From Deltaproteobacteria bacterium (GTDB lineage: Bacteria > Myxococcota_A > Polyangia > Fen-1088), in assembly GCA_033763315.1 (NCBI GenBank), contig JANRKS010000002.1, positions 256,001 through 320,000 of the forward strand: a DNA stretch of 64,000 bases, given 5' to 3'. Within the stretch, counting starts at the first letter, position 1. Every line of letters starts with the position of its first letter. The notes below the pieces were generated by a model, which ran no database searches, was not told the origin of the DNA, and worked only from the letters and a program-made list of their open reading frames with translations. The translations under genes and the position numbers were made by a program. This document shows, in pieces, positions 6,956 through 60,700 of this stretch.

Positions 6956-7025
6956 TGGTGAGCTATTTCTGGGTGCTTAAGCCCTTCGCCGTTGCGACGA
7001 CAGGGCATTTCCACGCCCGAAACTG

Positions 7026-7053
7026 TCAAGTTTTGGTAACCCTGCGACGATGT
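7026..7053 (+). promoter_or_regulatory. Sigma28 (FliA)-like promoter for chemotaxis cluster
   Basis: TCAAG-N15-GACGATGT; weaker tandem copy TTAAG-N14-GACGACAG at 6977-7003. Confidence 0.45.
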
Positions 7054-7060
7054 TCGAGGG

Positions 7061-7396: not shown

Positions 7397-7415
7397 GCAG
7401 CGCGTGAGAACTAAA

Positions 7416-7781
7416 ATGGCACGGACGATATTGATCGTTGATGACTCTGCATCGATGCGCGATCTGTTGCGCCACACTTTGACCCAAAGCGGATTTGATG
7501 TGATTGAAGCCGAAAATGGCTCAGAAGCTTTGGCGCGTCTGCAACGATCGCGCTGCGATCTTGTGATCACCGACCTAAATATGCCTTTGATGGATGGTCT
7601 CTCACTGATCAAAGCCGTTCGTGCTCTGGCTGCTTATAAGACCACGCCGCTCTTGCTTCTCACGACCGAAACCGCAGAGGCAAAGAAGGCGGCGGCGCGC
7701 GCTGCGGGGGCTTCTGGCTGGATCGTCAAACCGTTTGATCCAACTTCGCTCATGAAGACTGTGGGTAAAGTGCTGCCGTGA
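7416..7781 (+). CDS. cheY: Response regulator CheY
   Basis: ILIVDDS, ITDLNMPLMDG, LLTTE, GWIVKPF. Confidence 0.93.
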   Translation: MARTILIVDDSASMRDLLRHTLTQSGFDVIEAENGSEALARLQRSRCDLVITDLNMPLMDGLSLIKAVRALAAYKTTPLLLLTTETAEAKKAAARAAGASGWIVKPFDPTSLMKTVGKVLP

Positions 7782-9808
7782 GCGCGATCGACGACGAAGC
7801 GCCTTACGCGCGCTTTCTGCGCCTGTTTCTCGAGGAATGTGCTGAGTACGTTTCGGTGCTTGAAACGGGTTTGCTGGAACTCGAGCGAACGCCGGGGGAT
7901 CGGGAAACTTTGGACGCCGTCTTTCGTGCTGCACATTCGATGAAAGGTGGCGGCGCGGCTTTGGGCCTAGCTGAACTGTCTGAATTCACGCACGTCATGG
8001 AAAACGTGCTCGACGAAATGCGTGAAGGCCGCTTGTTGGCTGATGGCAAAGTTATTAGCGCCCTGTTGCAAGCGGTCGATGGGGTTAAAGCTTTGTTGGC
8101 GGCGGCTCAGGGGGGCGCGCCCGCTGATGCGGAGTTTCTCGCGGACATTGCAGCACGGCTAACGGGTGTGCGGCGGCCAACGACCGCGCCTTTGGCCGGC
8201 GTCGCGGAAGCACCCAACGCAACCGTCGATGCGGACGTGCGAACCTACATCGTTGAATTCGCCCCCGACGCTGGCCTTTTCCGCGCTGGCTTAGACAGCC
8301 TGCTTTTGCTGCGAGACCTGGCCGGCGAGGCGATCACTTATGACGTGCAGATAAACACTGACGCCGTTCCGCCGTTGTCAAAGCTCGATCCTGAGTCCTG
8401 CTACTGCTCTTGGGCGGTGAAACTAGAGACCACAGCCACGATCGAGCAGCTGGTCGATGTGTTCGCGTTCGCCGGCGGTGACACGGTGGCCCGGGTTCGG
8501 TTGGAATCTGCGACGGTCGCCGCGCCGGCCGCGATTCTGGCCCGTCCGGAGACGGTCCGGGCACCAGCTGAGCCTGCTGTCACGAAGGCGTCTTCCATTC
8601 GCGTGGCGACCCAGAAGCTGGACGGCCTGATCGACGTCGTGGGTGAGTTGATCATTGCGCAGGCCATGCTGAAAGATGTGGTGGCAAAAGCGGCGCACGA
8701 AACATCCACAGCGCTGCAGCAAGCGGTGCGCGAAATCGAACGCAGCACCCGAGATCTTCAAGAGCGGGTGATGGGTGTGCGCATGTTGCCCGTGAACACC
8801 GTATTTAGCCGCTTTCCGCGCATGGTCCGCGATTTGGCGATCGCGCTGGGCAAGGAAGTGGACTTCGTCATGGAAGGTGGCGACATCGAACTCGACAAGA
8901 CAGTCATTGATTTGATCGGCGATCCACTCACACATCTGCTTCGCAACGCGCTTGACCATGGCATCGAGGCGCCCGCGGCACGTGTGGCCGCAGGTAAGCC
9001 GGCGAAGGCAACGCTGACCTTGAAGGCGTACCATGACGGCGGCTCTGTGGTGGTGTCTGTGCAGGACGATGGCCGCGGGCTGGATCTGGACCGCATTCGT
9101 GCCAAGGCCCTCTCGCGCGGTTTGGTCGAGGAGGGGCAACCTCTGACCCAAGCCGAAATCACTGACCTAATCTTCGCGCCTGGGTTCTCGACCGCCGAAA
9201 CCGTGAGCGACGTCTCAGGCCGTGGCGTGGGTATGGATGTGGTCAAGCGCAGCGTGCAAGCGTTGAACGGATCTCTAGGCGTGGATTCGGATGCAGGGAA
9301 AGGGGCGTGCTTCTTCGTCATCCTGCCCCTGACACTGGCCATCTTGGATGGGCTTGCTGTTCACGTTGGCCAGCAGGTCTACATTCTGCCGCTGCTCTCC
9401 GTTGTGCAGTCCTTCCGCCCGAGCAGAAACGACACCCACAACGTTCTTGGGCAAGATGATCTCGTGTCGGCGTTTGGTCAGACTTTGCCGCTGGTGAGGC
9501 TTGGCCATTTGTTCGCGGTGCCAGAATACAAGGACAACCCGTGTGACGGTCTGGTGATTGTGGTGGAACACGCGGGCCACCAATTCGCTTTGTTGGTGGA
9601 TGGGGTACGTGGCCGCAGCCAAGTGGTCATGAAAAGTCTGGAGGTCAACTTCAAGCGCGTTGCAGGCACCATGGGCGCCACCATCTTGGGGGACGGTCAC
9701 GTGGCCCTAATCCTGGACGTCAAAGGGCTGAGCCGACTGGCGCGCTTGCCATCGGCGCTTCATCGCACAAATGCCGGGGCGAACCCGAGAGGAGCGGCCC
9801 TTGCGTAA
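7778..9808 (+). CDS. cheA: Chemotaxis histidine kinase CheA
   Basis: Hpt FRAAHSMKGG, HLLRNALDHGIE, DDGRG, FAPGFST, GRGVGMDVV, C-terminal CheW-like domain. Confidence 0.97.
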   Translation: MSAIDDEAPYARFLRLFLEECAEYVSVLETGLLELERTPGDRETLDAVFRAAHSMKGGGAALGLAELSEFTHVMENVLDEMREGRLLADGKVISALLQAVDGVKALLAAAQGGAPADAEFLADIAARLTGVRRPTTAPLAGVAEAPNATVDADVRTYIVEFAPDAGLFRAGLDSLLLLRDLAGEAITYDVQINTDAVPPLSKLDPESCYCSWAVKLETTATIEQLVDVFAFAGGDTVARVRLESATVAAPAAILARPETVRAPAEPAVTKASSIRVATQKLDGLIDVVGELIIAQAMLKDVVAKAAHETSTALQQAVREIERSTRDLQERVMGVRMLPVNTVFSRFPRMVRDLAIALGKEVDFVMEGGDIELDKTVIDLIGDPLTHLLRNALDHGIEAPAARVAAGKPAKATLTLKAYHDGGSVVVSVQDDGRGLDLDRIRAKALSRGLVEEGQPLTQAEITDLIFAPGFSTAETVSDVSGRGVGMDVVKRSVQALNGSLGVDSDAGKGACFFVILPLTLAILDGLAVHVGQQVYILPLLSVVQSFRPSRNDTHNVLGQDDLVSAFGQTLPLVRLGHLFAVPEYKDNPCDGLVIVVEHAGHQFALLVDGVRGRSQVVMKSLEVNFKRVAGTMGATILGDGHVALILDVKGLSRLARLPSALHRTNAGANPRGAALA

Positions 9809-10841
9809 GATTCGCGTTCTCGTGATCGACGACTCAGCCATGTTTCGCGAGATGCTCAGCGCTCTTTTGCGAACGGAGCCGCAGATTGAGGTGGTGGGAA
9901 CCGCGCCGGATCCGGTTGCGGCTTGGGCGATGATCAAGCAACTGGCGCCCGATGTTCTGACCTTGGACGTTGAAATGCCCCGCATGGATGGCCTGACCTT
10001 TCTTCAGAACCTTATGACCCATCATCCGCTTCCCGTGGTGATGGTATCTGCGCTCACAGAAAGGGGGTGCCAGGCTACGTTGCGGGCTTTGGAATTGGGT
10101 GCGATTGACGTTGTGACCAAACCGAAGGTTGACGTTCGCGCCGGCATGGCCGAAGCCGCGGTTGAACTGATCGATAAGGTTCGGATCGCTGCGCAATCAA
10201 GGGTGCTTGTGCGAAAACAGGTGGCGCCCCCACCGTCAAAGGTCGCATCAACCTGGTTAGGGCGCACCACGTATAAAATCATCGCCGTGGGCGCTTCCAC
10301 GGGCGGTACGGAAGCTTTGACGACGTTCTTAAGTGCGCTGCCAGCCGACGCGCCCGGTGTGGTGGTTGTGCAGCATATGCCCAGCCGCTTCACAAAGTCG
10401 TTTGCCGAGCGCCTTGACCGCTTGTGCCAAATTCGCGTCGCAGAAGCCGCTGACGGCGATCGCGTGTTGACAGGTCAAGCGCTCATCGCGCCGGGTGGTT
10501 TTCACATGACCGTGGGCCGTTCAGGCGCCGACTACTTGGTGCGTGTGAATCAGCAGCCACAAGTCAACGGACATCGCCCCTCTGTCGATGTGTTGTTTGA
10601 TTCGTGTGCTGAGTATGTGGGGCGCAACGCGGTGGGTGTGATCATGACGGGCATGGGCGCGGATGGAGCGCGGGGTTTACTGAAGATGCGTAAAGGCGGC
10701 GCAAAAACGTTCGCTCAGAACGAGGCGACATGTGTGGTTTACGGCATGCCGCGCGAGGCGGTGGAGCGCGGCGCGGTTGATGAGGTGCTTCCGCTTGACC
10801 AGTTGTCGGCCGCCGCACTTTCGGCCGTTGATGCGAACTAA
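9801..10841 (+). CDS. cheB: Chemotaxis methylesterase CheB
   Basis: Receiver domain plus GASTGG, VQHMP, HRPSVDVLF, MTGMGADGA. Confidence 0.97.
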   Translation: MRKIRVLVIDDSAMFREMLSALLRTEPQIEVVGTAPDPVAAWAMIKQLAPDVLTLDVEMPRMDGLTFLQNLMTHHPLPVVMVSALTERGCQATLRALELGAIDVVTKPKVDVRAGMAEAAVELIDKVRIAAQSRVLVRKQVAPPPSKVASTWLGRTTYKIIAVGASTGGTEALTTFLSALPADAPGVVVVQHMPSRFTKSFAERLDRLCQIRVAEAADGDRVLTGQALIAPGGFHMTVGRSGADYLVRVNQQPQVNGHRPSVDVLFDSCAEYVGRNAVGVIMTGMGADGARGLLKMRKGGAKTFAQNEATCVVYGMPREAVERGAVDEVLPLDQLSAAALSAVDAN

Positions 10842-10850
10842 AGGACGAAG

Positions 10851-11357
10851 ATGAACGCCACACAGACGCATTTTTCAAAGGGCCTTCAAGCGACGCGTTC
10901 GCAGCTGCTCACGTTCCGTTTGGGAACAGAGGAGTACGCGATCGACGTATTGAAGGTGCAGGAGATCAAGGGCTTCTCCCACATCACGCAATTGCCGAAT
11001 GTGCCTGACCACATCAAAGGTGTGATGAACCTGCGTGGCACCGTCATCCCCGTCATCGACCTGAGATTGAAGTTCGGCCTGCCTGCGGCACCCTACGACA
11101 GGTTCACGCTGATCGTGGTGATCAACGTGGCTGGCAAGACTGTGGGTTTTGTTGTGGATGCGGTGAATGCCGTTGTGTCGATTCCCACGAGTGAGATCTC
11201 AGCCCCACCGGATCTCGCATCAAGCCTGGGTGAGCAAATGATTTCAGCGATGGCGCACATCAAAGACCGTTTGGTGCTGCTGTTGAACATCGAAACCGTG
11301 GTTTCAGAGTTGGCGTCAGCCGTGGCCCTCCCAGAGATTGCACTGCAAGGCAGTTAA
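10851..11357 (+). CDS. cheW: Chemotaxis coupling protein CheW
   Basis: LLTFRLGTEEYAIDVLKVQEI, GVMNLRGTVIPVIDLR. Confidence 0.95.
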   Translation: MNATQTHFSKGLQATRSQLLTFRLGTEEYAIDVLKVQEIKGFSHITQLPNVPDHIKGVMNLRGTVIPVIDLRLKFGLPAAPYDRFTLIVVINVAGKTVGFVVDAVNAVVSIPTSEISAPPDLASSLGEQMISAMAHIKDRLVLLLNIETVVSELASAVALPEIALQGS

Positions 11358-11366
11358 GGAAACGTC

Positions 11367-13139
11367 ATGTTGAACAAGTTGAAGATTCGCACGAAATTAA
11401 TGCTCTTGCTCGGGGGCTTCGGCCTGGCTTTCGTCGGGCTTGGTGTTGCGGTGGTGAGGACGATCAGTGACGTGCAAGTGGGCGGCGACACATACCGCGA
11501 GATCACGCAATACAAAGACTTGGTGGCGGATATTCTTCCGCCTCCAATGTATGTCATCGAGGCCTACCTGGAGAGCCAACTGCTGGCCAAAGGCCTCGAA
11601 GGGCCGGCTTTTGACAGAAGCGTGAACAAGGTTGCCGAGCTGCATGCCTCCTACAACGACCGGCACGCCTTTTGGTCAAGCCATTTGGATGCCGGGGACC
11701 TGAAAAGCACATTCCTGCAGCAGGCGCACGAGCCAGCGATGCGCGTGTTTTCCCTAATCGAGTCCCAGCTGGTTCCGGCGTGCCGTCGGCACGACACGCC
11801 CGAGATCGCCAAGGCGCTGGCTGAGGTTTCTCAGGCATACGAGGCGCACAGGCAGGTCGTGGATCGTGTGGTGGTGATGGCCAATGCCGCCTATACACAA
11901 GTGGAAACAAGGTCCATGGCTTTTGTGTCTCAGAGGCATAACACGTTGCTGATGGCGTCGATCACCGTTCTCGTCGTTTTGATCGTGGCCGGTACATTGG
12001 TGGGCCGTTCCATCATGAGGCCCCTTGATGAGACGTTGCGCTTGATCAAAGAAGTTGCCGAGGGCGACGGCGATTTAACCAAGCGCTTGTCCGAAGAGGG
12101 CAACGATGAATTGTCGATGTTGTCAGCGTCCTTCAATGGCTTCATGGATCAGCTGCACGACATCATGTCGGATGTAAAGAATTCCGCCGCGTCGCTGTCC
12201 TCCGCGGCCCAGCGCGTGTCGTCGAGTGCTGAACAAATTTCAGGTGGCGCTCAAGAGCAGGCCTCAAGCCTCGAAGAAACGGCGGCGAGCCTCGAGCAAA
12301 TCACCTCAACCGTTAAACAAAACTCAGACAACGCGCAACAGGCCGCGCAGCTGGCCAGCAGCTCGCGAAACGTCGCCGAACAGGGCGGCGTTGTGGTTAG
12401 CCAGGCCGTCTCGGCCATGGGCGAGATCAACAGAGCTTCTAAAAAGATTGCGGAGATCATTACAACGATCGACGAGATCGCCTTCCAAACCAACGTTCTT
12501 GCCCTGAACGCAGCGGTTGAAGCGGCACGCGCAGGGGAGCAGGGGCGCGGTTTTGCCGTTGTTGCCACCGAGGTGGGCAATCTTTCACAACGATCGGCAG
12601 CTGCGGCCAAGGAGATCAAGGCGCTCATCAACGACGCCGTTCGTCTGGTGGACGATGGGGCAGGGTTGGTGAACCGCTCGGGCCAAACGCTCACAGACAT
12701 CGTGGTGTCGGTCAAACGTGTCACAGACATCGTTGGCGAAATCGCGGCTGCCTCGAAAGAACAGACCGCGGGTGTTGAGCAAGTCAACCTGGCTGTGACC
12801 CAGATGGATTCGGTCACGCAGACCAACGCCGCCGAAACTGAGGCTTTGGCCGAGACCGCCGCGGGCCTGTCAAGACGTGCCAGCGAAATGCAGATGTTGG
12901 TGAACCGCTTCAAAGTGATGGAGTCAAGCCAGGCGCCAACGGTTTCGATGGATCCACCCAAGCAGCGGGTCGATCGTTCAGCACGTCGCAGACGCGCGCC
13001 ACTCGTGAGTCACGCCAGTGCACACAGCCGTAAGCGTATGGAGGCGCCCTTCGACGACGCGGGCATATCGGCCATGGACAGGCTTATGAATGGCGGTGGC
13101 GGCGACTCTCCCACGGCTGACGGGTTCGAGGAAGTGTAG
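11367..13139 (+). CDS. Methyl-accepting chemotaxis protein (2 TM, periplasmic sensor, HAMP)
   Basis: [33 protein letters not shown] signalling hairpin. Confidence 0.97.
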
Positions 13140-47561: not shown

Positions 47562-48809
47562 ATGCCGTTGCGCCTGACGTTGGGGGTTGTATTGATGGTC
47601 GTCGCCCCTCGCGCGGCCATCGCTCAAACGATGCGCGACGCCGTGAAGGAGCACGTCAAAGACAACCTGCAAGCGCCGCCCAACCCACCGGCCCCCGATC
47701 CGGTTCCGCCCAAGAAGAAGGCCGTCAAACCGAGTGGGCCTGTGACTGGGGCCAAAGCGGGCAACCCAGACGCGACGTGGTCGTTCTCAAGCGACGAGGC
47801 CACAAGCCCGCGCATCGTGAGTGCTGTGCCGAAGCGTCCTTTAAGTCCGTGGTTGCAACTCGACCTCAAGGTGGATGGCGCCTACCGCGGCTGGCTTCCG
47901 CAGCAATACAAAAGCGCTGACGTGAAAGTGGGCGGCTATTACACGTGGAGCGTGGAGTTGCGAGGCAAGCTGTTCAAATATGTGAACCTGCACCGCGGTT
48001 ACTACGAATCCAATTCACTTGCGGCGCCGCGCACGAATGAAGCGGCGGTCGCGGCGCAGGTGGGGCAACATTTGCCGAAGGCAGCGTGGCTTTTGGCCAC
48101 CGTGGGCGTGCCCATCTCGAAAGCCTGGGAGCCCACCGTTCGTTATGAATCACGTGCGTTCAACACCAGCGCAACGCCGAGAATTCCTGTGTGCATCGTG
48201 GATAGGGGTGCTTCTGGCGATTTACAGGATTGTCCCAAGACGATGAACAAGTTGAACATCGTTTCAGGCTTCGAGACGTTTACGATGGGCGTGCGTTACA
48301 ACCACGCCAAGGCCGGCGGCCCTGTGATCCAGGATCACGCGAGCAAAATTCCTCCGGTGTTCTTTGGGCTCGGTTTGATGTCGTACACGAAGCCGTATCA
48401 GGTGACGATCAACGGCAACACGTTGCAGGACTACCTCTTCGATGGGCGGTTTCGCGGCGCGGGCCTGGCCTTGGGCACGAACCTAGGCGGCGGGGTGCGA
48501 CAGCTGTTCGTCGATGCGGATCTGCAGGTGGGCCTTGGGCAAGTGTCACTTACCAACAGCTTGACCCTCAACGAACTGACGCCGGGCGACTGGTTGATTG
48601 GCTACGCGCAAGGCAACGTGACGTGCGGCTATCGGTTTGTGTTGTTTGAAGGGCCGCCAACCATCTTTTTCACACCCGTGGCCAGCGGCGGTGGCGCGAG
48701 CTTTCACTTCGTCAAGACCAAACAGAATGCCGACGAGCCGCAACGGACGCCGAATCTGAACTGGGATTTTCTGTGGTCTGTGCGGGCCGCGATCGAGGTG
48801 GCGATCTAG
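47562..48809 (+). CDS. Exported protein, possible outer-membrane beta-barrel
   Basis: Signal peptide AIA, Pro linker, many amphipathic strands, terminal strand WSVRAAIEVAI. Confidence 0.6.
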   Translation: MPLRLTLGVVLMVVAPRAAIAQTMRDAVKEHVKDNLQAPPNPPAPDPVPPKKKAVKPSGPVTGAKAGNPDATWSFSSDEATSPRIVSAVPKRPLSPWLQLDLKVDGAYRGWLPQQYKSADVKVGGYYTWSVELRGKLFKYVNLHRGYYESNSLAAPRTNEAAVAAQVGQHLPKAAWLLATVGVPISKAWEPTVRYESRAFNTSATPRIPVCIVDRGASGDLQDCPKTMNKLNIVSGFETFTMGVRYNHAKAGGPVIQDHASKIPPVFFGLGLMSYTKPYQVTINGNTLQDYLFDGRFRGAGLALGTNLGGGVRQLFVDADLQVGLGQVSLTNSLTLNELTPGDWLIGYAQGNVTCGYRFVLFEGPPTIFFTPVASGGGASFHFVKTKQNADEPQRTPNLNWDFLWSVRAAIEVAI

Positions 48810-50428
48810 TTGGTGTGCTTGTTGAGGTAGGTCACGAGGGCGTCCCTGATGGCGGCCCGTTGCGCGTTTGGCGACGACGTTGGGTAATACTCCGTGATGT
48901 AGAACGAAACTGTGGCTTCTGCCGCGTCGGCACTGCAGCCACCAACTTCGACGTATCCGTAAAAATCCATTTGTTCGGGTCCCTCCGTCCAAAACGGCAA
49001 AGGAGGATCCGGAAGCCTCTTCATGACATCCGTCCAAAAGCGCAGCAATTCGAGGTGAGGCGCGGGCGCGATCATTCTTAGGTTTCCTTTGTCATCCTCG
49101 AACCGAACCGTTGGATGCTGAGGCACAAAGCGTCCGCGTAGATGGATGCGACGGCCAAACAAAGCGAACGGGTTCGTCAGCAGAGCACCGATATCGACGT
49201 CCTCCGTCGGTTCACCAAGTAGCGCTGCCAAGGGGCGCTCGCGCCATGGCAGCGGGGTGGCGGGGCGCAGGGGCACTTCCTCGAGCACAACGCCGCTTTC
49301 GTTGATGTGAACGAGGCCGGCGGCGCCGGCGGCCACCCACCAGCCTTTGTTGCCGTCGCTTGTGGCGTCCACCGCTTTGATGCCATCGAGCACAAACACC
49401 GCGCTCCCCGACCGCGTTCCCAGCAGCAGACCTTTGCGTTCGATGTATCCGCAAAGCCAACGCCCAGCGCCGTCTTCGCGAATAAACCCAACGCCTCGGC
49501 CCCACTCTTCGTTTGGCAACGTGACGGGCTCTGTTCCGATGTAGAGCTTTTGCGGCGACGCAAACAGCGGCGAGGGCTGAGAAGACGACGACACCGTGCG
49601 CACGTCGACCGCGGCGGCTGCAGGGGCGGCTTCCCAGCGGCTGCCACCGACGGTGACGTTGAGGCGGGCGGGACCAGTGGTGGCGGTGGTGGCCCAGAGG
49701 TTACCCGCGCTGTCTTTGCCCAAAGCCTTGAGGTTCTCGGGTGGCATCGAAGGAAGGCTCCACGGCGCGTCGTCCAAGCGATCGATCATGGCACCCACAA
49801 GGTGCGCCGCGCCTCCCGACACAGCGGCCAACCACACGCCACCATTTGGATCCTCCACCAGCGGCTGTCGGGCACGCTCGCCCGCGTGAACAAGCGGCGC
49901 CGCACCGAAGACGCTGAGGTTGGTGTTGGTGTCGTAAGCGTAAAGATAACCTCGGCGTGAGGTGATCCACTTCGTTCCATCGCTGCCCAAAAGCAGTGCA
50001 TGAACGCCGCTGTCTGGCACGCGTGCGTTGTAGGCATCGAAGTAAGTCCAAGCGTTGCCTTGGCGACGGAACAGGCCATGACAAGTGGTGCCAGCCCACA
50101 ACGTGCCGTTGGGTTCAAGCGCCACCGCCGTGGCCTCCGTGCCCATCAACGCAACGGCGGATGCCCCCGCTGTGAGCGCGCTCGAAAGGCTGACAGGACC
50201 AGGGGTTACAGGTGGCGCTGCCTCGGACGGACACAGATTCGCGCAGATGTTGAGCGCCGTACAGCAAGAGAAACCTTTGGCGCAAGGGCAGGGTTTGCCC
50301 TTGAGCGGCAGTGGCTCTAAGCAGCCGCCCACGCATAGGAGCGCCAGCAGGCAAACAATCCCACCCAACAACAGGGGGCCTCGCGTCGCCGCTTTACCAG
50401 CGACCAGACAATGCGAACGCAACGCCAT
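48806..50428 (-). CDS. Lipoprotein with Cys-rich N-module and regulator-type beta-propeller
   Basis: Lipobox VGGC; KPCPCAKGFSCC..C...C; repeats EPNGTLWAGT, GSDGTKWIT, EDPNGGVWLA, KDSAGNLWAT; start uncertain. Confidence 0.75.
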   Translation of the reverse strand: MALRSHCLVAGKAATRGPLLLGGIVCLLALLCVGGCLEPLPLKGKPCPCAKGFSCCTALNICANLCPSEAAPPVTPGPVSLSSALTAGASAVALMGTEATAVALEPNGTLWAGTTCHGLFRRQGNAWTYFDAYNARVPDSGVHALLLGSDGTKWITSRRGYLYAYDTNTNLSVFGAAPLVHAGERARQPLVEDPNGGVWLAAVSGGAAHLVGAMIDRLDDAPWSLPSMPPENLKALGKDSAGNLWATTATTGPARLNVTVGGSRWEAAPAAAAVDVRTVSSSSQPSPLFASPQKLYIGTEPVTLPNEEWGRGVGFIREDGAGRWLCGYIERKGLLLGTRSGSAVFVLDGIKAVDATSDGNKGWWVAAGAAGLVHINESGVVLEEVPLRPATPLPWRERPLAALLGEPTEDVDIGALLTNPFALFGRRIHLRGRFVPQHPTVRFEDDKGNLRMIAPAPHLELLRFWTDVMKRLPDPPLPFWTEGPEQMDFYGYVEVGGCSADAAEATVSFYITEYYPTSSPNAQRAAIRDALVTYLNKHTN

Positions 50429-51926
50429 CCATATGAGCATTGTCGGCAGCGCGCGGCAGTGCAAGTAGCATCCACCCTGTGGTGGCCGCACCGGCCGCTA
50501 AACCAAGCCCGATCGCCGCCGCCCATTGCAGCGTGTGGGCGCGATCGTTGAGTTTGTCGGCTCTGGCTTGATCGGTGCGAGCGTCGGCTTCATGCAACGT
50601 CACATACGCAGCTCCGAACGACAGCACGCTCGCCGCGGTCAGCGCGCCCGCCGTCCAAAATGCGGCCTTCGCAAGCGGTGGTGTTGGTTGTCTTGGAGCG
50701 GGGGGAAGGGGCTCGGCAACCGCCTGGTCACGCAGGTCAATGGCCGCGAGCTTCTGTGCACTAAATGGCAGCGCGAACAAGCTGCGGAATGCATGGTCAG
50801 CGGCGCCGCGGGCACTTGTGCGGCGCTGTTGCGGTGAAAACGCCGCCAGATTCACGACTCCATCGACGCGGCTCAACTGCACCTCTGTATCGCTGTCGTC
50901 ATCGAATACGTACAGCGTTGATGCGTTTTGCGGCCACACCAAATGCACTGCCTGGCCTTGGGCGTTGTGAAAATCAAGCACGCGAATGCCGTTGCGATCC
51001 TCAATCGCGTGGTGGGCCGACGTTGCCGTGCCCGAGACGAAGATCTGGTTGTGCAGCGCTGATCGTAGGTCTGCAAGCGTCCGCGTGTGCTCCGGTGGCA
51101 AGGCGTGAACGCGCGGGCGATAAAGTTCGTTCGCGATCGGTTCGGCCGCCAAAGCCACGAACCGCTGCAACTCCTCGTAGGTGACCAGCCCATCCAGATC
51201 CACGTCAGCGGCGCCCGCCAGGCCCGAGCGCACCAAGTGGCTGAACACGCCTGCGGCAAAGCCTTCGTATTCGAACGTTTGGGTCATGCTGCTGGTGGCA
51301 AACATCAAGCCCACGCGGCGATCCAAGGCACGCCGGGCCACCTCGCGCGCGAACGGCGACAGCGCACGCCGTTGACCTCCTGGCCCGCGCGCCTCGGTCA
51401 AGAACTGTGAATTGCAGGCATCAACGATGACGTGAAACGTATCTGCGTTCACCTTGTCAACCAGCGAAGCAAACAAGCGGCTGGCGTCCAGGCGCGCGTC
51501 CGCCAAGGTCAAAAATCCCTCCTGCGTTTGCTCGTCGCGCGCGCCGTGGCCCGCATAGATGAAATACACAACCGTTGCTTCGGAAGCCGCGCGATCGTCT
51601 GCCACGCGTTGTTTTAGCCACGTGGTGGCGGCATCGAATTCTTTCCACGTAGGTGGCTTGAGAGCATGAGCCTCCTCGAATAGCCGTTGCGTGTTTGCGT
51701 CCGGATCGGACAACGTCAACGTTTGCGCGCCCAAGGTGCGGAGCAGGGCTGTGTATTTTAAAGCGTCATCATCTGCGAACCGCAGCGGCGCAAGCCCCGC
51801 CTCGTTCGGCTGATTCACGCCGATGATCAACGCGTATGTTTTTGTGGCCGCCGGCGCGGCGAGCGCCGTGGGCTGCCAAAGGCACGCCACAAGCGGCATA
51901 AGCCACAACCAATTATTGCGTGGCAT
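50394..51926 (-). CDS. Exported caspase-family (C14) peptidase
   Basis: Signal peptide ALA, YALIIGVN..LRFADDDA, YAGHG and DACNS dyad, DVDLDGLVTYEE EF-hand-like loop, C-terminal hydrophobic helices. Confidence 0.88.
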   Translation of the reverse strand: MPRNNWLWLMPLVACLWQPTALAAPAATKTYALIIGVNQPNEAGLAPLRFADDDALKYTALLRTLGAQTLTLSDPDANTQRLFEEAHALKPPTWKEFDAATTWLKQRVADDRAASEATVVYFIYAGHGARDEQTQEGFLTLADARLDASRLFASLVDKVNADTFHVIVDACNSQFLTEARGPGGQRRALSPFAREVARRALDRRVGLMFATSSMTQTFEYEGFAAGVFSHLVRSGLAGAADVDLDGLVTYEELQRFVALAAEPIANELYRPRVHALPPEHTRTLADLRSALHNQIFVSGTATSAHHAIEDRNGIRVLDFHNAQGQAVHLVWPQNASTLYVFDDDSDTEVQLSRVDGVVNLAAFSPQQRRTSARGAADHAFRSLFALPFSAQKLAAIDLRDQAVAEPLPPAPRQPTPPLAKAAFWTAGALTAASVLSFGAAYVTLHEADARTDQARADKLNDRAHTLQWAAAIGLGLAAGAATTGWMLLALPRAADNAHMDGVAFALSGRW

Positions 51927-52701
51927 CGTCCGCCTCCCCCGCCACCGTCAGAGGGTGCGTTGCAATCTGCGCGGCACGATCCAATGTGCGCAAAGTGTGA
52001 TCGCCGCGCTGCCAAGCGGATTCGGCCTCGCGAACGTTGAGCTTCGACTTCAAGAACACAGCCACAACTTTGGCCGGCCCCGGCGCAAACGCGTGTGCCA
52101 CCGCATCGTCCATGGCGTACGTACGCTGCGGCCGGATGGCCTTCCCCGTGGGCGTTTGGCGCGCGTCGTTCCACGCAGGCTCGTACCAAAACATCTGTCC
52201 CTTGGCGTCGATAGCGAACACCATGACAAACGCAAACCCAGCGGGCGCCCGATAAGAAAGCGTCAGTTCACTCGCCTTTGTGATCACCGCTTTGGGCGCC
52301 AGCGGTTGCCGTTGATCGTTGGAGCCCACTTCATAAACGGCCAGGGCGCCGTTGTCGGTGTTGCCACGTTCACTCCAACCATCGGGCGGAGCCTGCGTTC
52401 GCTGTGATGGCGTCAACCAGAATACGCATGCCGCGGCCGCCAACGCGACTGCGCTTGCCGCCCACGCCCACGGGCGCACAACGCGTGGGGGCTTCTGTAA
52501 ATCAAGCGCCACGCGAAGCCGCTCTTTTGCGGTTGGTGCGTGCGGGGTCAATCTTGAAACGACCAGCGCGCGTTCGTAATAAGCGCTGCACGCCAAGCAG
52601 TCAGTTAGGTGCGCACGCATGCGTTGCTCCTCGGCTGCCGTCGTGCTCAAGGCAAAGTGTGCATCGATGAGTTTGGTGGCGTGGCCTTGGCTGTTGGTCA
52701 T
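51913..52701 (-). CDS. Zinc-binding (ZAS) transmembrane anti-sigma factor with periplasmic domain
   Basis: HLTDCLAC (HxxxCxxC), TM WAWAASAVALAAAACVFW, C-terminal beta domain VMVFAIDAKGQMFWYEP. Confidence 0.8.
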   Translation of the reverse strand: MTNSQGHATKLIDAHFALSTTAAEEQRMRAHLTDCLACSAYYERALVVSRLTPHAPTAKERLRVALDLQKPPRVVRPWAWAASAVALAAAACVFWLTPSQRTQAPPDGWSERGNTDNGALAVYEVGSNDQRQPLAPKAVITKASELTLSYRAPAGFAFVMVFAIDAKGQMFWYEPAWNDARQTPTGKAIRPQRTYAMDDAVAHAFAPGPAKVVAVFLKSKLNVREAESAWQRGDHTLRTLDRAAQIATHPLTVAGEADDATQ

Positions 52702-53252
52702 GATGTTCGGCTTTCTTTCAGCATCCGACGCAGGAGGCGACGCAATTGTAGCTCTTGGTAAGCCAAAGTTGTGCGGTGCATGTTCAGGGTGGCGGCGGCA
52801 TCCCGCTGCGACAGTTGCCTTACGAAGCGCGCTTCAAAGACCTTGGCCCACTTCGCCGGGATGGCCGCGTTGATCTTTTCAAGGAAGTGGCGCGCGTCGA
52901 GCTGCGACGACAGGCGATCTTGGGCTTGCCCCTCATCATTGGGCATCGTCGATTGCGTTTCCTCCAACAGGGGCCGTTCACGCGCCACAACGCGGCGGTG
53001 GTGATCAATCGCGCGGTTACGTGCCACCACGCGAAGCCACGCGCCCAAAGAGCCACCCATAAAACTGCGCCGCAACTCGCCGCTTTCCAGCAAGGCCAGG
53101 AACACTTCGTGAACCACGGTGTCGCGATCCGCACCCTGCAACACGGTGCCTACCGCCTGCCACACATCCTCAAAGTGCCGTTCGTAGCAATCGGCCATCG
53201 CGCGCCTGTCCCCGTTATGGAACAGCGTCAGATCATCGGGATTGTGGCTCAT
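52698..53252 (-). CDS. ECF sigma factor
   Basis: GDRRAMADCYERH, VVHEVFL, AWLRVVARNRAIDHHRR, region 4 LSQRDAAATLNM; start 53252 or 53309. Confidence 0.88.
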   Translation of the reverse strand: MSHNPDDLTLFHNGDRRAMADCYERHFEDVWQAVGTVLQGADRDTVVHEVFLALLESGELRRSFMGGSLGAWLRVVARNRAIDHHRRVVARERPLLEETQSTMPNDEGQAQDRLSSQLDARHFLEKINAAIPAKWAKVFEARFVRQLSQRDAAATLNMHRTTLAYQELQLRRLLRRMLKESRTS

Positions 53253-53320
53253 GGCGTGGTGCAGGCGCGTGCCAAGCGAGGCGTGCCACGGGTTGTTAGC
53301 GGTCCACATACAAAGACCCG

Positions 53321-53355
53321 AACGAACGAGCGCCCGCGCTTGGACGAATGTTTTT
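53321..53355 (-). promoter_or_regulatory. Putative ECF-dependent promoter of the sigma operon
   Basis: AAAAAcaTTCGTCCAAG-N12-TTCGTT on minus strand. Confidence 0.65.
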
Positions 53356-53395
53356 TTTCATTTTGACCTTCACCCAAGGCGCGCGCTCTGCCCAG

Positions 53396-53430
53396 AAAAA
53401 TCTTCGTCCAAGACCGCGGGCCTCTTCGTT
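53396..53430 (+). promoter_or_regulatory. Putative ECF-dependent promoter of the LamG lipoprotein gene
   Basis: AAAAAtcTTCGTCCAAG-N12-TTCGTT on plus strand, same boxes and spacing. Confidence 0.65.
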
Positions 53431-53487
53431 TCAGTTCCAACACCACCTTGCGACGTGGTGCGCTTAAACCCGTGACTTGGAGCAACG

Positions 53488-54432
53488 ATGAAAAAGCAGA
53501 CTCTCTTGGTGAGCTTAGCGATCGCGACGAGCCTGTGGGCGGGACTCGGCTGTTCCCCCAACGGCGGCGATGATGAGCCCGTCGTCAACGGCGGTGGAAA
53601 AGCGGGCAAAGGCGGCGGCGGCATGGGTGGTGGTGCTGGCGGCAAAGGTGGTGGTGCTGGCGGCACTTCAACGTCACCGGGGGGCAGCGGCGGGGTGATA
53701 AGCGATGGCGGCGCCAGTGGTCAAGGCGGTCCTGTGGGCGGCGCCGTGGGCGACGGGCTGATTGGCTATTGGCGCTTCAACGAAGGCTCAGGCACCGGCG
53801 TCAAAGACGCCTCAGGCAAAGGCAACAATGGAACTATCTTGGCTGGTTCCATTCAGGATTCGCCCTTGGCCGCCAACCCCAAATGGATCAAGGGACGCTC
53901 CGGCCAAGGTTTGGAACTCAACGGCAAGGACGAATGGGTGAAAGTGCCCGCTTCAGAATCGATCAACGAGACGTCGACGAACGGCGGATCCGTCACGATG
54001 GCCGCGTGGGTTCAAGTCAAGAGCATCGATGCCACGGGTGAAGACTACAACTTCATCATCAGTCGCCACGAAGTTGGCACGGCCTACGAGTTGTTCGGCT
54101 TGGGCTTGGTTGCTGGAAAGGTGAGCACCAGCATTCACTTCTTCCCAGCCACGGGTGCCCAAACGGTGCCGGTGGACGGCACGTGGCATCACATTGCCGG
54201 CACCTACGATGGTATCACGCAGGTTTCATACTTAGACGGCCTGCCACAAGGCTCTTATGACAGCGGCTGGCCCGTCGCCGCCGACAACACGCCGCTCATC
54301 ATCGGCGGAAACCAAAACACAGATACCGTGAAAGAATTTTGGGATGGCGCGCTCGATGAGGTTCGCCTTTACAACCGACCGCTGACGGCGCAAGAAATCG
54401 CCGCCTTGGCCGCCGAGCCGCCTGCGCCTTAA
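53488..54432 (+). CDS. LamG/concanavalin-like domain lipoprotein with Gly-rich linker
   Basis: Lipobox GLGC; LIGYWRFNEGSG, WHHIAGTYDG, GALDEVRLYNRPLT. Confidence 0.88.
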   Translation: MKKQTLLVSLAIATSLWAGLGCSPNGGDDEPVVNGGGKAGKGGGGMGGGAGGKGGGAGGTSTSPGGSGGVISDGGASGQGGPVGGAVGDGLIGYWRFNEGSGTGVKDASGKGNNGTILAGSIQDSPLAANPKWIKGRSGQGLELNGKDEWVKVPASESINETSTNGGSVTMAAWVQVKSIDATGEDYNFIISRHEVGTAYELFGLGLVAGKVSTSIHFFPATGAQTVPVDGTWHHIAGTYDGITQVSYLDGLPQGSYDSGWPVAADNTPLIIGGNQNTDTVKEFWDGALDEVRLYNRPLTAQEIAALAAEPPAP

Positions 54433-57685: not shown

Positions 57686-58741
57686 ATGCGCCCAACGAAT
57701 AACCTTCACGTCAAAGACTACAAACTGCTGGCGTCTCCCGCGCAGATCGTGGCCGAGATCCCCATGAGTGATGCCGCCTCCGAGACGGTGGCCACCACGC
57801 GCGAAGAAGTGCGCCGCCTCATCCACGGCGAAGATCAGCGCCTGCTGGTGGTCGTGGGCCCCTGCAGCATTCACGACCTTGGCATGGCCGAGGAATACGC
57901 CGCCTTCGTGGCGTCGGCTCGCAAAGAATATGCGTCGTCTTTGCTGATCTTGATGCGGGTCTATTTTGAGAAGCCCCGAACGACCGTGGGGTGGAAGGGG
58001 CTCATCAACGATCCGCACCTTGATGGCACCTATGATGTGGAGACGGGTTTGCGCCTCGGCCGGCGTCTGCTGGTGTCGCTCGCTGAGCGTGGCATCCCCG
58101 CCGCGTCTGAGGTCCTGGATCCGATCTCGCCGCAATACTTGGCCGAAGCGATTGCGTGGGCGGCGATCGGCGCGCGCACGGTTGAAAGCCAAACCCACCG
58201 TGAGATGGCCTCGGGCCTGTCGATGCCGATCGGCCTTAAGAACGGCACCGATGGATCACTGCAGACCGCTGTCAACGCCATGAAGTCGGCAGCGCAACCG
58301 CACCATTTTCTGGGCGTCGACTCGCATGGCCGCGTGGCCATCGTTGAAACCTCGGGCAACAAGGACACCCACTTGGTGTTGCGTGGTGGTCTGGCAGGGC
58401 CCAATTACGACGAAACGAACGTCATCAGCGCCGCAGCGGAATTAAAGAAGGGCGGCTTGCCTTCGCGGATCATGATCGATTGCAGCCACGACAACAGCCT
58501 CAAGGACTATAGCCGCCAACCCACGGTGCTCAGCGACATCGCCGCGCAGGTGAAACGTCACAACCACATCCTGGGCGTGATGATTGAATCCAACCTCGTG
58601 GCCGGCAAGCAAGCGTTTCCGCCCGCCCCAGGCGTGGCCTTGCGCCACGGTCAAAGCATCACCGACGGCTGCGTGGACTTGGACACAACGCGCACCATGC
58701 TTGACCAGCTGGCCAGCGCGCACGCAAAACGTTCCGCCTAA
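57686..58741 (+). CDS. DAHP synthase, class I alpha (AroF/G/H type)
   Basis: GPCSIHD, RVYFEKPRTTVGWKG, IGART.ESQ.HRE, DCSH, SITDGC. Confidence 0.95.
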   Translation: MRPTNNLHVKDYKLLASPAQIVAEIPMSDAASETVATTREEVRRLIHGEDQRLLVVVGPCSIHDLGMAEEYAAFVASARKEYASSLLILMRVYFEKPRTTVGWKGLINDPHLDGTYDVETGLRLGRRLLVSLAERGIPAASEVLDPISPQYLAEAIAWAAIGARTVESQTHREMASGLSMPIGLKNGTDGSLQTAVNAMKSAAQPHHFLGVDSHGRVAIVETSGNKDTHLVLRGGLAGPNYDETNVISAAAELKKGGLPSRIMIDCSHDNSLKDYSRQPTVLSDIAAQVKRHNHILGVMIESNLVAGKQAFPPAPGVALRHGQSITDGCVDLDTTRTMLDQLASAHAKRSA

Positions 58742-59499
58742 ACCCGCAGGCCAGACCAGCCGCCCGTGCGCAGTTGTGCCTCGGCGTGGCTGCGTTCGTC
58801 GGGCGTATCCACTTCCAACCAGCCGTGACCGCTGATGTCGCGGCAGTGCGGCGGGGTGCTTGTGCGTGCCAAACGAGCCAGCACACGCTCGACGTGAATG
58901 TCGAGGCCATCTTGCGCCATCGCCGCGTCCACTTCAGCCAGGTAGCGGGCGCGCGCCCCGCCGGGAACGCGGGTCATGCCCACGTAGCCGCAGTCGAAGG
59001 TGGTGAGCGTCTTCGCGATCTCGGCGATGCGGCCGCGGTCATCGCGCAGCACCTTCATGTCATCGTTGCCCAAAGACCGATCGGTGTCGATGAAGCCAGT
59101 GACGTCATCAACGGCGGCGGTCACCACACGGGCGATGGCAGGCCGATAGATGTGGTCGACGTTCAGCAGCACAAAATCATCCGTGAGGTGGGGCCGCGCC
59201 GCCTGGAAGGAGAGGATGTTGCCGCGACGAAATTCCGTGTTGCGCACAAGTTCGATGGGCAAACCGGCAGCTGAGCCTTCAGACAATGCGCCGAGCGTGC
59301 TTTGCACTTGGTCGAACTCGAAGCCGCCCACGACGATGATCTTGCGGGGCGAGAGCAAGCGCGCGAACGCCAACCCGTAAGCCAACAGGGGACTGCCGTT
59401 CACAGCGATCAAAGCCTTCGGCAGGCTGCGCGTGAGATCTCCCAAGCGGCTGCCGAGGCCGGCCGCCATCAACACCACGTCAAGTGCGGCCACGCTCAC
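58738..59499 (-). CDS. NTP transferase (phosphocholine/sugar-phosphate cytidylyltransferase-like)
   Basis: LMAAGLGSRLG..LPKAL, NVD, DDMKV, WLEVDTPDE. Confidence 0.8.
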   Translation of the reverse strand: MSVAALDVVLMAAGLGSRLGDLTRSLPKALIAVNGSPLLAYGLAFARLLSPRKIIVVGGFEFDQVQSTLGALSEGSAAGLPIELVRNTEFRRGNILSFQAARPHLTDDFVLLNVDHIYRPAIARVVTAAVDDVTGFIDTDRSLGNDDMKVLRDDRGRIAEIAKTLTTFDCGYVGMTRVPGGARARYLAEVDAAMAQDGLDIHVERVLARLARTSTPPHCRDISGHGWLEVDTPDERSHAEAQLRTGGWSGLRV

Positions 59500-60224
59500 A
59501 TGCCTGCGGCGGAGGCCACGTTCCAGAACAAGCTGGGGATGTCGCCAAAACGATCCACCACAGGATGCTTCGGAAACTTCAACATGAAGCGCTCGCGCGA
59601 GAAGGTGCCGGCCACGCCGATGAAGCGCAGGTTTTCAACTTCGGCGATGTCGCCATCGTGAAGCGAATCGCCCACGAACATCAAATCCTCGCGAGCCACA
59701 CCAAAGTGTTTCATCGCCAGTTCCACGTGCGCCTTGCCTTTGGCCAAGCCATTGCCGTAGCCCAAGGCCAAGTCAAATGGGAACGGGTTGTGCTTGATGA
59801 AGGTGTTAACGTTTTCGGTGCCGTTGTTTGACGAAACCACCACGCGAACACCGCGTGAGCGCATTTCTTCCAGGGCCAAGCGCGTGTCGGCGGACAGCTT
59901 GGCGGTGCTGCAGCGGGCGGGCTTGGCAGCCTCGAACCGATCGGACGCCGCTTGGTTGCGGGCGTCGCCTGGGCAAATCACGTCCAGCTGGCGGATGAAG
60001 GGAAGGCCACATGTGGCGAGGTACATGTCCCGGGCCAGGCCACGGTCCATCCCGTACATCTCTTCAAGCACCTCGGTGGCCAAGTCGGCCAAAACCGGCA
60101 TCGTGTCGATGAGCGTTCCATCCAGGTCGCAAAGGATGACCTTGGGAGCCGCAAGGCGAGGCGAAACCGCGCGGGACACCCGGCGAGGCGTGGAGCTGAA
60201 AGCGGCAGGAACCTGGATGTCCAT
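59496..60224 (-). CDS. HAD-family phosphatase
   Basis: CDLDGTLIDT, VVSSN, KGK, FVGDSLHD; ATGA overlap with NTP transferase. Confidence 0.85.
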   Translation of the reverse strand: MDIQVPAAFSSTPRRVSRAVSPRLAAPKVILCDLDGTLIDTMPVLADLATEVLEEMYGMDRGLARDMYLATCGLPFIRQLDVICPGDARNQAASDRFEAAKPARCSTAKLSADTRLALEEMRSRGVRVVVSSNNGTENVNTFIKHNPFPFDLALGYGNGLAKGKAHVELAMKHFGVAREDLMFVGDSLHDGDIAEVENLRFIGVAGTFSRERFMLKFPKHPVVDRFGDIPSLFWNVASAAGM

Positions 60225-60362: not shown

Positions 60363-60385
60363 ACCAAACGCCGATGTGCCCGGGC

Positions 60386-60700
60386 ATGGACGAACAGGTG
60401 CGGCAGCAGGCGAAAGCAAAGCTTGGTGGGTTGATTGCCAAGGTGCTTGAAGACGGCGTGATTGACGCCGGTGAACGCGAATCCCTTCAAGGTTTTTTTC
60501 GGGACGCGCTCTTAACGGTCAGTGATGTGAAGGCCGTCTATTTGGACTCCGTTGGAGCCCTCCAGGCCGAAGTTTTGGCCGACGGCGTGGTCACGGCCGA
60601 GGAAGCCCGGCGCTGCAAGTTGGTGGTGGAACAGTTGCGCATCCCCCTGCGCATGTTGCCGCCCGAGATGGTTGCCATCGTCACGGGTCAAAAACCGTAG
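60386..60700 (+). CDS. Small TerB-like helical protein
   Basis: Two repeats LEDGVIDAGER and LADGVVTAEEA. Confidence 0.6.
   Translation: MDEQVRQQAKAKLGGLIAKVLEDGVIDAGERESLQGFFRDALLTVSDVKAVYLDSVGALQAEVLADGVVTAEEARRCKLVVEQLRIPLRMLPPEMVAIVTGQKP

Follow-up and report, generated by a model that had tools for sequence, protein, structure and literature searches.

A conserved sigma factor, anti-sigma factor and C14 peptidase module with modular lipoprotein partners in Myxococcota, a proposed variant of protease-gated sigma signalling

The gene cluster considered here lies at 48806-54432 of a 64,000-nucleotide stretch of DNA (positions 256,001 to 320,000 of the forward strand of contig JANRKS010000002.1, GenBank assembly GCA_033763315.1, Deltaproteobacteria bacterium; the whole stretch is called the window below). 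It consists of four co-oriented minus-strand open reading frames (ORFs), for a sigma factor of the extracytoplasmic function (ECF) type, a zinc anti-sigma factor, a caspase-like peptidase of family C14 and a lipoprotein, together with one divergent plus-strand ORF for a probable LamG lipoprotein. The module is a real, conserved and uncharacterised variant of protease-gated sigma signalling, and copies with a sigma factor, an anti-sigma factor, an exported C14 peptidase and a lipoprotein bearing a conserved N-terminal cysteine (Cys) module are widespread in Myxococcota. For its working we tentatively favour, at slightly below an even chance, a conserved four-part envelope module in which the caspase encoded in the operon would act as dedicated site-1 protease of the anti-sigma factor. 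The elements on which the argument draws are the following, in coordinates of the window, which holds a single copy of each module gene:

52698-53309, minus strand: ECF (group IV) sigma factor, ORF of 203 aa, matching Sigma70_r2, Sigma70_ECF and TIGR02937 above their cut-offs
51913-52701, minus strand: zinc anti-sigma factor, single-pass, 262 aa (HxxxCxxC motif; AlphaFold2 (AF2) model)
52363-52380, minus strand: juxtamembrane linker motif G108-W-S-E-R112-G113 of the anti-sigma factor (family consensus G-F-x-A-R-G), with a predicted site-1 cut after Arg112
50394-51926, minus strand: C14 (metacaspase/orthocaspase-like) peptidase, 510 aa, predicted to be exported and membrane-anchored (PF00656, E-value 1.4e-10)
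51171-51206, minus strand: EF-hand-like loop D241-V-D-L-D-G-L-V-T-Y-E-E252 within the caspase domain (profile match to EF-hand proteins)
48806-50428 (ORF to 50491), minus strand: propeller lipoprotein, 540 aa from the ATG at 50428 (Reg_prop above cut-off, E-value 9.8e-7)
50231-50323, minus strand: N-terminal Cys module of that lipoprotein, Cys36-Cys66 (C36, 10 aa, C47PC49, C55C56, C62, C66)
53321-53348, minus strand: ECF-type promoter of the sigma operon, made up of TTCGTCCA (53341-53348), a 16-nt spacer and CGTT (53321-53324), with an A-rich tract before it
53403-53430, plus strand: second ECF-type promoter copy, facing the LamG gene, exact TTCGTCCA-N16-CGTT, 33.7 bits with a position weight matrix (PWM)
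53488-54432, plus strand: probable LamG lipoprotein, 314 aa (Laminin_G_3, concanavalin-like, residues 146-305, E-value 1.4e-23)

A first line of evidence that these genes belong together is their order in other genomes. Related loci were found by a genome scan with an alignment of 32 caspase relatives, which gave 246 genomic relatives, and the best 80 of these (L001 to L080) were examined, with neighbouring genes located by tblastn with the window proteins and by motif anchors. The 80 loci include Myxococcus xanthus, Archangium, Hyalangium, Pyxidicoccus, Vitiosangium, Labilithrix and many metagenome-assembled genomes; a protein collection has at least 315 relatives about 510 aa long for the C14 caspase, those with a name all coming from Myxococcota. 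Where at least 1.5 kb is available upstream of the caspase gene, sigma and anti-sigma genes lie on the caspase strand in 71 of 72 loci, and the anti-sigma gene directly adjoins the caspase gene in 68 of them; the exceptions are a lipoprotein gene inserted between caspase and anti-sigma in L048 and L080, a shortened anti-sigma match in L061, and L025, to which we return below. By tblastn the sigma factor is present in 74 of all 80 loci (its orthologues are 38-53% identical) and the anti-sigma factor in 78, while identity of the caspases across related loci is only 35-50%. The order of sigma, anti-sigma and C14 genes is thus strongly conserved across Myxococcota. In the window the ends of the ORFs overlap just as a preliminary description of this DNA had reported, by 4 nt between sigma and anti-sigma (52698-52701) and by 14 nt between anti-sigma and caspase (51913-51926), and the neighbourhood comparison that it had called for comes out in favour of the cluster. 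The 4-nt overlap of sigma stop and anti-sigma start is kept in nearly all orthologous loci, and caspase and fourth gene overlap by 35 or 47 nt, depending on whether the latter starts at the ATG at 50428 or at that at 50440.

A shared promoter is the second line of evidence. The sigma factor scores 25.4 bits with Sigma70_r2 (cut-off 24, E-value 1.3e-5), 21.4 bits with Sigma70_ECF (cut-off 21.1) and 50.4 bits with TIGR02937 (cut-off 42.9, E-value 1.8e-13), the domain matches span residues 27-197 of 203, and the protein has the small size and the sigma-2 and sigma-4 regions alone that are expected of an ECF factor, to which the 4-nt overlap with the anti-sigma gene and a conserved, predicted bipartite promoter add a further ECF trait. 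Of 73 regions upstream of sigma genes, 52 contain the hexamer TCGTCC, which is absent from the control coding segments, and alignment on it extends the motif to TTCGTCCA, a fixed 16-nt spacer and CGTT, in which C, G and the final T are each present in 94-98% of 48 sites, with an A-rich tract just upstream. This arrangement reads as the typical −35/−10 layout of an ECF promoter. The window contains three exact copies of the motif, where 0.01 would be expected, and two of them point away from each other within the 178 nt that separate the divergent sigma and LamG genes. With a PWM built from the other loci, the promoter of the sigma operon scores 37.1 bits, whereas the maximum over 20 shuffles is 14.3. 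Upstream of the sigma orthologues a strict match to TTCGTCCA-N16-CGTT is found in 39 loci and a PWM score of at least 20 bits in 50, the latter count being circular in that the matrix was trained on such sites; sites of at least 20 bits also precede the Cys-module lipoprotein gene in 19 loci (in M. xanthus, for example, at the caspase stop) and other genes in 17, mostly lipoprotein or secreted-protein genes, including the LamG orthologues. The sigma orthologues and paralogues of L001-L080 have an identical −35/−10 core. Taken as a prediction from these sites, the sigma/anti-sigma/C14 unit is autoregulated, with lipoprotein genes placed behind a matching type of promoter. The sigma protein itself perhaps begins at Met20 (ATG 53252), as suggested by the first ATG sitting only 11 nt past the −10 element. 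A scan of 48.5-54.7 kb for sigma-70-type promoters found none, and the same interval holds 5 terminator-like sites against 7.2 expected.

The third exact copy (60367-60394, minus strand) was considered as a further target and rejected: it scores 13.2 bits, within the range of the shuffles, and has no A-rich tract. It could be a weak regulon member or a chance occurrence. It lies about 140 nt upstream of a gene for a haloacid dehalogenase (HAD)-family hydrolase (59496-60224), which is followed by a nucleotidyltransferase (NTP-transferase) gene (58738-59499).

The anti-sigma factor was originally described as having an HxxxCxxC motif, one transmembrane segment and an extracytoplasmic domain, and both the sequence and the AF2 model bear this out. 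The motif, H31xxxC35xxC38, lies within an N-terminal helical domain, as in zinc-binding anti-sigma factors, so that binding of zinc and of the sigma factor is predicted. It is found in 72 of 75 orthologous ORFs, being absent from L042, while the L053 ORF is truncated and that of L058 cut by the contig end; zf-HC2 matches 52 of 61 orthologues (best E-value 1.2e-6), and the protein of the window at an E-value of 0.033, below the cut-off. The model, built with 61 orthologues, has a mean predicted local distance difference test score (pLDDT) of 81 and consists of anti-sigma domain helices at residues 2-65 (pLDDT 87-97), a membrane helix at about 78-95, a disordered linker at 97-116 (pLDDT below 50) and a confidently predicted periplasmic Ig-like beta-sandwich at 120-253. 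Within the linker, which otherwise varies, one short motif stands out a median of 12 residues past the membrane helix: across the 61 orthologues the Arg is present in 61, the Gly that follows it in 58, the Ala that precedes it in 41 and the Phe at −3 in 43. 

The beta-sandwich itself is of less certain kinship. Membership of DUF4384 (PF14326) was considered and rejected, the window protein matching at an E-value of 0.13 and all matches falling below the 27-bit cut-off. Four of eight neighbour rows of the ectodomain in the ESM Atlas carry DUF4384 (template-modelling (TM) scores 0.63-0.75), which we treat as a lead only, and one of the neighbours carrying it is a Fibrobacterota cluster that also has zf-HC2; the ectodomain can be called weakly DUF4384-like by these models, and not a member of the family. 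An ectodomain profile run against 1.84 billion representatives gave 1554 matches at E ≤ 1e-3, the best 150 of which are all 108-319 aa long, and no longer, fused forms were found among 1655 candidates, which is weak evidence. Kinship between the anti-sigma and caspase families was rejected as well (hhalign probability 0.4%, no similarity).

The peptidase reads as a caspase-fold enzyme. Its AF2 model (pLDDT 82, predicted TM score 0.74) shows a caspase domain at 28-276 and an Ig-like domain at 283-360, and its best Foldseek matches are the MALT1 caspase-Ig3 structure, yeast Yca1, Arabidopsis AtMC9 and Trypanosoma brucei TbMCA2 (E-values 1.5e-7 to 9e-7). The His-Gly and Asp-Ala-Cys elements, which the preliminary description had called intact, are present in the window as G126-H127-G128 and D169-A170-C171, and the comparison supports the call: H127, C171, D52-54, D169, E219, D241, Y250 and E252 are each conserved in all 81 sequences (the window and the 80 loci) and G246 in 80, and GHG together with the Cys in 81 of 81, the PF00656 match and the caspase-fold matches place the family in C14. 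Since the His/Cys dyad is intact throughout, the caspase is under selection as an active enzyme. The invariant acidic residues lie at the start of alpha1 (D52-54), two residues before the Cys (D169) and in the next loop (E219), and by position in sequence and model, without superposition or alignment, they fall in the three regions that bear the Arg-specificity residues of metacaspases and MALT1. In Arg-specific relatives the acidic S1 residues are Asp95 and Asp211 of TbMCA2 and Asp365, Asp462 and Glu500 of MALT1 (PMC4357240; the same regions are drawn also from PMC6426788). From this placing of invariant acidic residues, a preference for Arg or Lys at P1 is expected, and the caspase is probably Arg-specific.

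Other parts of the peptidase were likewise named in advance. The export signal is represented by a hydrophobic leader (about residues 1-23) that ends ALA/AP. The EF-hand-like loop is upheld by a search of the caspase profile against PDB sequences, in which profile positions 238-267 match solved EF-hand proteins (Entamoeba EhCaBP, E-value 2.9e-6); that search returned the EF-hand loop only and no metacaspase alignment. The enzyme is possibly Ca2+-dependent, to judge by this loop. The C-terminal anchor proved hydrophobic as described; it is not a single segment, and is made up of two helices, 417-444 and 453-489 (50460-50678), after which comes a disordered tail with Trp as its last residue (50394-50459). 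The last residue is aromatic in 70 of 77 complete family members (F in 65, W in 4, Y in 1), and the two-helix hairpin before it is Gly/Ala-rich; it may be an inner-membrane hairpin or an outer-membrane anchor of glycine-zipper type with a beta-signal-like end. A disordered loop after Cys171 contains R180-G181 and R186-R187, the last two conserved in 79 and 75 of 81 sequences, and these Arg residues would suit autoprocessing. A-R-G occurs both in this loop (E-A-R180-G181; residues 180-187, 51366-51389) and in the consensus of the anti-sigma linker, which may reflect shared recognition or coincidence.

The fourth gene is conserved in a different manner. Its product has a predicted lipobox (...LLCVGG-C36), with lipidation predicted at the Cys, a Reg_prop-type beta-propeller at about residues 89-383 and, at the C-terminus, a region that belongs to no known family; the neighbours of the propeller in the ESM Atlas all have Reg_prop (scores no higher than 0.79, TM scores 0.43-0.48), a lead only. 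Full-length similarity to this protein is confined to L001 and L002. What is shared more widely is the Cys module, covered by no Pfam or NCBIfam model, with the consensus of a lipobox Cys, 10 residues, then C-P-C-x3-G-[WY]-x-C-C-x5-6-C-x5-8-C. Among 67 sequences, 54 have exactly 10 residues between lipid Cys and CPC; the lipid Cys stands at this fixed position after small residues in 54 and is in no case followed by Lys, and the positions −2 and −1 to CPC hold R/K/H in 52 and Pro in 44. Of the 74 loci with at least 400 nt available downstream of the caspase, 59 have a gene with this module as the next one there; in all, 69 of 80 loci contain such a gene, among them seven in which it lies upstream on the same strand and one in which it is on the opposite strand. 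The proteins differ in length, from about 140 to about 1270 aa in complete ORFs, and in content: of 51 sequences scanned with Pfam (the window and 50 others), 18 had matches at E ≤ 1e-3 and 33 had none, and the ectodomain families are Reg_prop, Big_6/Big_13, VWA, RCC1, NHL/TEN_NHL/DUF6923, Kelch and TrAA12; the M. xanthus protein, of 1268 aa, has FG-GAP with fn3. The fourth gene is therefore that of a modular lipoprotein, in which the N-terminal Cys module is conserved and the ectodomain can be swapped, and these lipoproteins constitute an undescribed family. In the window its gene has no promoter of its own in the PWM scan and is presumably co-translated with the operon. Locus L050 has tandem Cys-module lipoprotein genes (7277-9478 and 9577-11832) after one caspase gene; both have NHL-type repeats, and an exact promoter motif stands before each of them, at 7226 and 9529.

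The divergent LamG gene is a local addition. Its product has a predicted lipobox (...WAGLG-C22), and of the 80 loci only the two closest, L001 and L002, have an orthologue, so that it is no part of the conserved core. Between lipobox and Laminin_G_3 lies a Gly-rich low-complexity linker (GGGKAGKGGGGMGGGAGGKGGGAGG..., residues about 25-95, 53560-53770), and Gly/Thr-rich linkers are found also in the L001 and L002 orthologues. These two orthologues have promoter sites of 21.4 and 21.9 bits, and LamG is likely an output because the promoter before it matches the conserved motif of the sigma operon and recurs in both. LamG and the lipoproteins are, by these sites, likely direct targets of the sigma factor. 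The part of the preliminary description that made LamG the output is accordingly favoured by the promoter; found in 2 of 80 loci, LamG is lineage-specific.

How might these parts act together? In the reading that we prefer, the caspase would cut the anti-sigma factor after the invariant Arg112 in the juxtamembrane linker, and an RseP-type site-2 protease would then be presented with a stub of about 12-16 residues; proteases of this type accept short stubs. Once freed, the sigma factor would drive transcription of the operon that encodes it and of the lipoprotein genes next to it, the variable ectodomain of the lipoprotein (here a Reg_prop propeller, possibly ligand-binding) would set input or output specificity for each copy, and the conserved Cys module would couple the lipoprotein to the core. 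The caspase leader and the large domain of the anti-sigma factor beyond its membrane helix suggest that peptidase and ectodomain share the extracytoplasmic compartment, and the site-1 role is favoured by the coincidence of Arg-type acidic residues in the enzyme with an invariant Arg-Gly in a linker that is disordered and otherwise variable. Co-folding of caspase residues 25-400 with anti-sigma residues 97-262, run without controls, gave at best 0.24 against a mark of 0.32 and speaks neither for nor against binding.

Several observations weigh against this reading. The invariant Arg-Gly might have a structural role or be the target of another protease, and the S1 pocket of the caspase was assigned by position. 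In a Foldseek search against PDB the anti-sigma factor matched generic Ig-like sandwiches and no specific relative (the sole match at E ≤ 1e-3 is a mitoribosomal protein, with a root-mean-square deviation of 22 Å), and the link of its ectodomain to DUF4384 is weak, with 6 of 61 orthologues matching at E ≤ 1 (best 0.014). The census was anchored on the caspase and is one-directional, and it covers the best 80 of 246 relatives. Locus L025 has neither sigma nor anti-sigma gene within 5.9 kb upstream, where the genes are on the other strand, and it keeps the caspase (about 5935-7431) and a Cys-module lipoprotein with RCC1 repeats (7428-8582), from which it follows that the caspase has, or can have, another job. 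Finally, a sigma-type promoter of the lipoprotein's own fits an output at least as well as a sensor.

The last two points lead to the most serious alternative, which we consider less probable than a site-1 role and yet a real contender: caspase and lipoprotein would both be outputs, the caspase maturing, shedding or degrading the Cys-module and other induced lipoproteins, while the sigma/anti-sigma pair answers some other cue, such as a ligand of the beta-sandwich or a housekeeping site-1 protease of DegS or Prc type. The 19 loci in which the lipoprotein gene has its own sigma-type promoter, the 17 in which other adjacent genes do, and the survival of caspase and lipoprotein without the sigma pair in L025 fit it well, and the basic residue at −2 to CPC, whose distance from the lipid anchor is fixed, would offer a cleavage site. 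Pro after a basic residue is, however, unfavourable for protease cleavage, and it is present in 44 of the 67 modules. The link of the caspase to sigma and anti-sigma (71 of 72 loci) is moreover closer than that to the lipoprotein (59 of 74 adjacent, 69 of 80 anywhere), and the invariant Arg-Gly of the anti-sigma factor would go unexplained. Promoters of their own in 19 loci do imply that the lipoproteins are at least partly output and not purely sensors, so that of the earlier proposal of a propeller lipoprotein as sensor or activator the lipoprotein partner is retained, while conservation extends to the Cys module and not to the propeller.

The same residues allow a rather unlikely elaboration of the site-1 idea, in which the Cys-module lipoprotein is a tethered regulator of the caspase. 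The Arg/Lys-Pro of the module would be an uncleavable pseudo-substrate held at a fixed distance from the membrane, and the swappable ectodomain (propeller, FG-GAP/fn3, Ig-like, VWA, NHL, RCC1 and others) would bind an extracellular ligand specific to each copy; ligand capture by the ectodomain, or loss of the lipoprotein, would free the caspase, an Arg-specific, Ca2+-tuned periplasmic enzyme, to cut the anti-sigma factor at Arg-Gly, and the sigma factor would resynthesise the lipoprotein and so reset the switch. If this is true, myxobacteria hold arrays of receptors for prey, kin or matrix.

It is more doubtful still that the caspase is a latent effector of envelope damage or conflict, held in check by the periplasmic domain of the anti-sigma factor, by the Cys module as pseudo-substrate, or by both, and unleashed by a breach or by Ca2+ entry into broad proteolysis, with sigma release as a secondary alarm. 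The conserved EF-hand-like loop and the R/K-Pro of the Cys module, which would suit a non-cleavable P1-P1' pair, are compatible with such a role; prokaryotic caspases do occur in conflict systems with dedicated inhibitors, for example PCi of Haliangium, and DUF4384-type domains, which the anti-sigma domain weakly resembles, are reported to be often fused to proteases (bioRxiv 10.1101/2022.08.17.504292). Against it, PADLOC recognises the peptidase by a generic caspase model only, the flanking genes are housekeeping genes, and a fused caspase form of the anti-sigma domain was not detected in sequence, which is weak evidence. That the genes are mere neighbours without a common function is effectively refuted by an order kept in 71 of 72 loci at caspase identities of 35-50%, by overlapping frames and by the shared promoter, and we give it next to no credence.

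The surroundings of the module in the window are of a housekeeping kind: by Pfam and NCBIfam the flanking genes encode phosphoenolpyruvate (PEP) carboxylase, a secreted protein of 415 aa belonging to no family, an OmpA/MotB-like protein, glutaminyl-tRNA synthetase (GlnRS) and 3-deoxy-D-arabino-heptulosonate 7-phosphate (DAHP) synthase. PADLOC, run on six window proteins, returned the generic caspase model alone (E-value 9e-8), with no match for sigma factor, anti-sigma factor or lipoproteins, and assignment to a known anti-phage defence system was rejected on that result. The nearest flanking gene is:

47562-48809, plus strand: 415-aa protein with an N-terminal leader, without a Pfam, NCBIfam or PADLOC match

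It is convergent with the lipoprotein gene, the stop codons of the two overlapping, and it occupies the same relative place, at 55% identity, in L001 and L002 only among the 80 loci.

A myxobacterium has some 40 or more ECF sigma factors, and for most of them neither a signal nor a route of activation is known. If the site-1 reading is true, the caspase family would be a new class of protease in regulated anti-sigma proteolysis, dedicated and operon-encoded, and prokaryotic C14 peptidases would gain a defined non-lethal signalling role in the periplasm, a role that has until now been put forward for the fused CHAT domain of DdvA alone and demonstrated in none but cytoplasmic CRISPR-linked systems. 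The idea is now testable at a predicted scissile bond (after Arg112), with a reporter promoter (TTCGTCCA-N16-CGTT) and at the catalytic Cys, and an orthologous locus, L011, lies in the genetically tractable Myxococcus xanthus.

Among known systems, the general frame is classical regulated intramembrane proteolysis (RseA/DegS/RseP and RsiW/PrsW/RasP), in which a site-1 cut near the membrane is followed by a site-2 metalloprotease, sigma release and autoregulation. There the site-1 enzyme is a serine or metalloprotease encoded elsewhere, whereas the one proposed here would be an operon-encoded cysteine peptidase of clan CD.

That sigma factors and metacaspases occur together has been published before, as a co-occurrence and no more. 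Four of the five metacaspases of M. xanthus DK1622 lie in operons with sigma-70-family factors, and the pattern is seen also in Anaeromyxobacter, Haliangium, Sorangium, Ralstonia and Fibrobacter (Asplund-Samuelsson et al. 2012, PMC3501461); the module described here is almost certainly the association noted there. The available text of that paper treats co-occurrence only, does not contain the word 'anti-sigma', and gives no mechanism, cleavage site, lipoprotein partner or promoter.

Among the nearest parallels in mechanism is DdvS/DdvA of M. xanthus, in which an ECF sigma factor is held by a single-pass zinc anti-sigma factor (CHCC/HxxxCxxC-type) and, as proposed for the module here, a periplasmic caspase-fold protease has been put forward for the first cut before RseP (PMC11506125). 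In DdvA, however, about 900 residues of TPR-CHAT are fused to the anti-sigma factor and would act in trans within a dimer, and a CBASS/CRISPR island is under its control (PMC11506125); here the protease is a separate C14 protein, and the likely neighbouring targets are lipoprotein genes. An anti-sigma factor of the DdvA TPR-CHAT type was considered for the module and rejected, the ectodomain being a beta-sandwich of about 135 residues with the hhalign probability of 0.4% to the caspase family already given. In Craspase, the complex of Cas7-11 with the TPR-CHAT protein Csx29 cleaves Csx30 and so frees an ECF-like sigma factor (bioRxiv 10.1101/2022.08.17.504292), which resembles the present proposal: the protein that sequesters the sigma factor is cut in a flexible linker by a caspase-fold protease. 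Some C-terminal domains of Csx30 are DUF4384, to which the anti-sigma ectodomain is weakly alike. The parallel with Craspase drawn in the preliminary description is thus sound as a concept and does not extend to closer kinship, Craspase being cytoplasmic, RNA-guided, CRISPR-encoded and of CHAT type, in contrast to a C14 peptidase with an export leader; membership of the type III-E systems was rejected, with no cas or CHAT families in the ten genes at 44-59 kb. The PCaspase of Haliangium ochraceum is a C14 peptidase encoded beside a sigma factor that it cleaves, PCc-sigma, and an inhibitor, PCi (bioRxiv 10.1101/2023.06.23.546230). It is cytoplasmic, is activated by a SAVED-CHAT protease that senses cyclic oligoadenylate (cOA) and cuts the sigma factor itself along with many other proteins, and its system as described has neither the transmembrane anti-sigma factor nor the lipoprotein found here.

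In the ECF classification, subgroup 2 of ECF216 is restricted to Myxococcales, has a zinc-finger, one-helix anti-sigma factor at position +1 and has EF-hand domains in its genetic context (Casas-Pastor et al. 2021, PMC7826278). The sigma factor of the module fits this subgroup by descriptive traits alone, and the EF-hand loop of the caspase would explain the EF-hands in that context; the available description of the subgroup calls its promoter motifs unconserved and mentions neither a C14 peptidase nor a caspase. ECF54, for its part, is reported to have CHAT, subtilase and carboxypeptidase neighbours (PMC8999054).

Full-text literature searches, which did not extend to subscription-only papers and bioRxiv supplements, returned no paper on the mechanism of the module, its anti-sigma factor, cleavage motif, Cys-module lipoprotein or promoter. 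New here, then, are an anti-sigma factor with an Arg-Gly linker, a caspase of Arg type with an EF-hand loop and a two-helix anchor, the Cys-module lipoproteins and their common promoter, and DdvA, Csx29/Csx30 and PCaspase stand beside them as precedents for caspase-fold proteases that act on sigma control.

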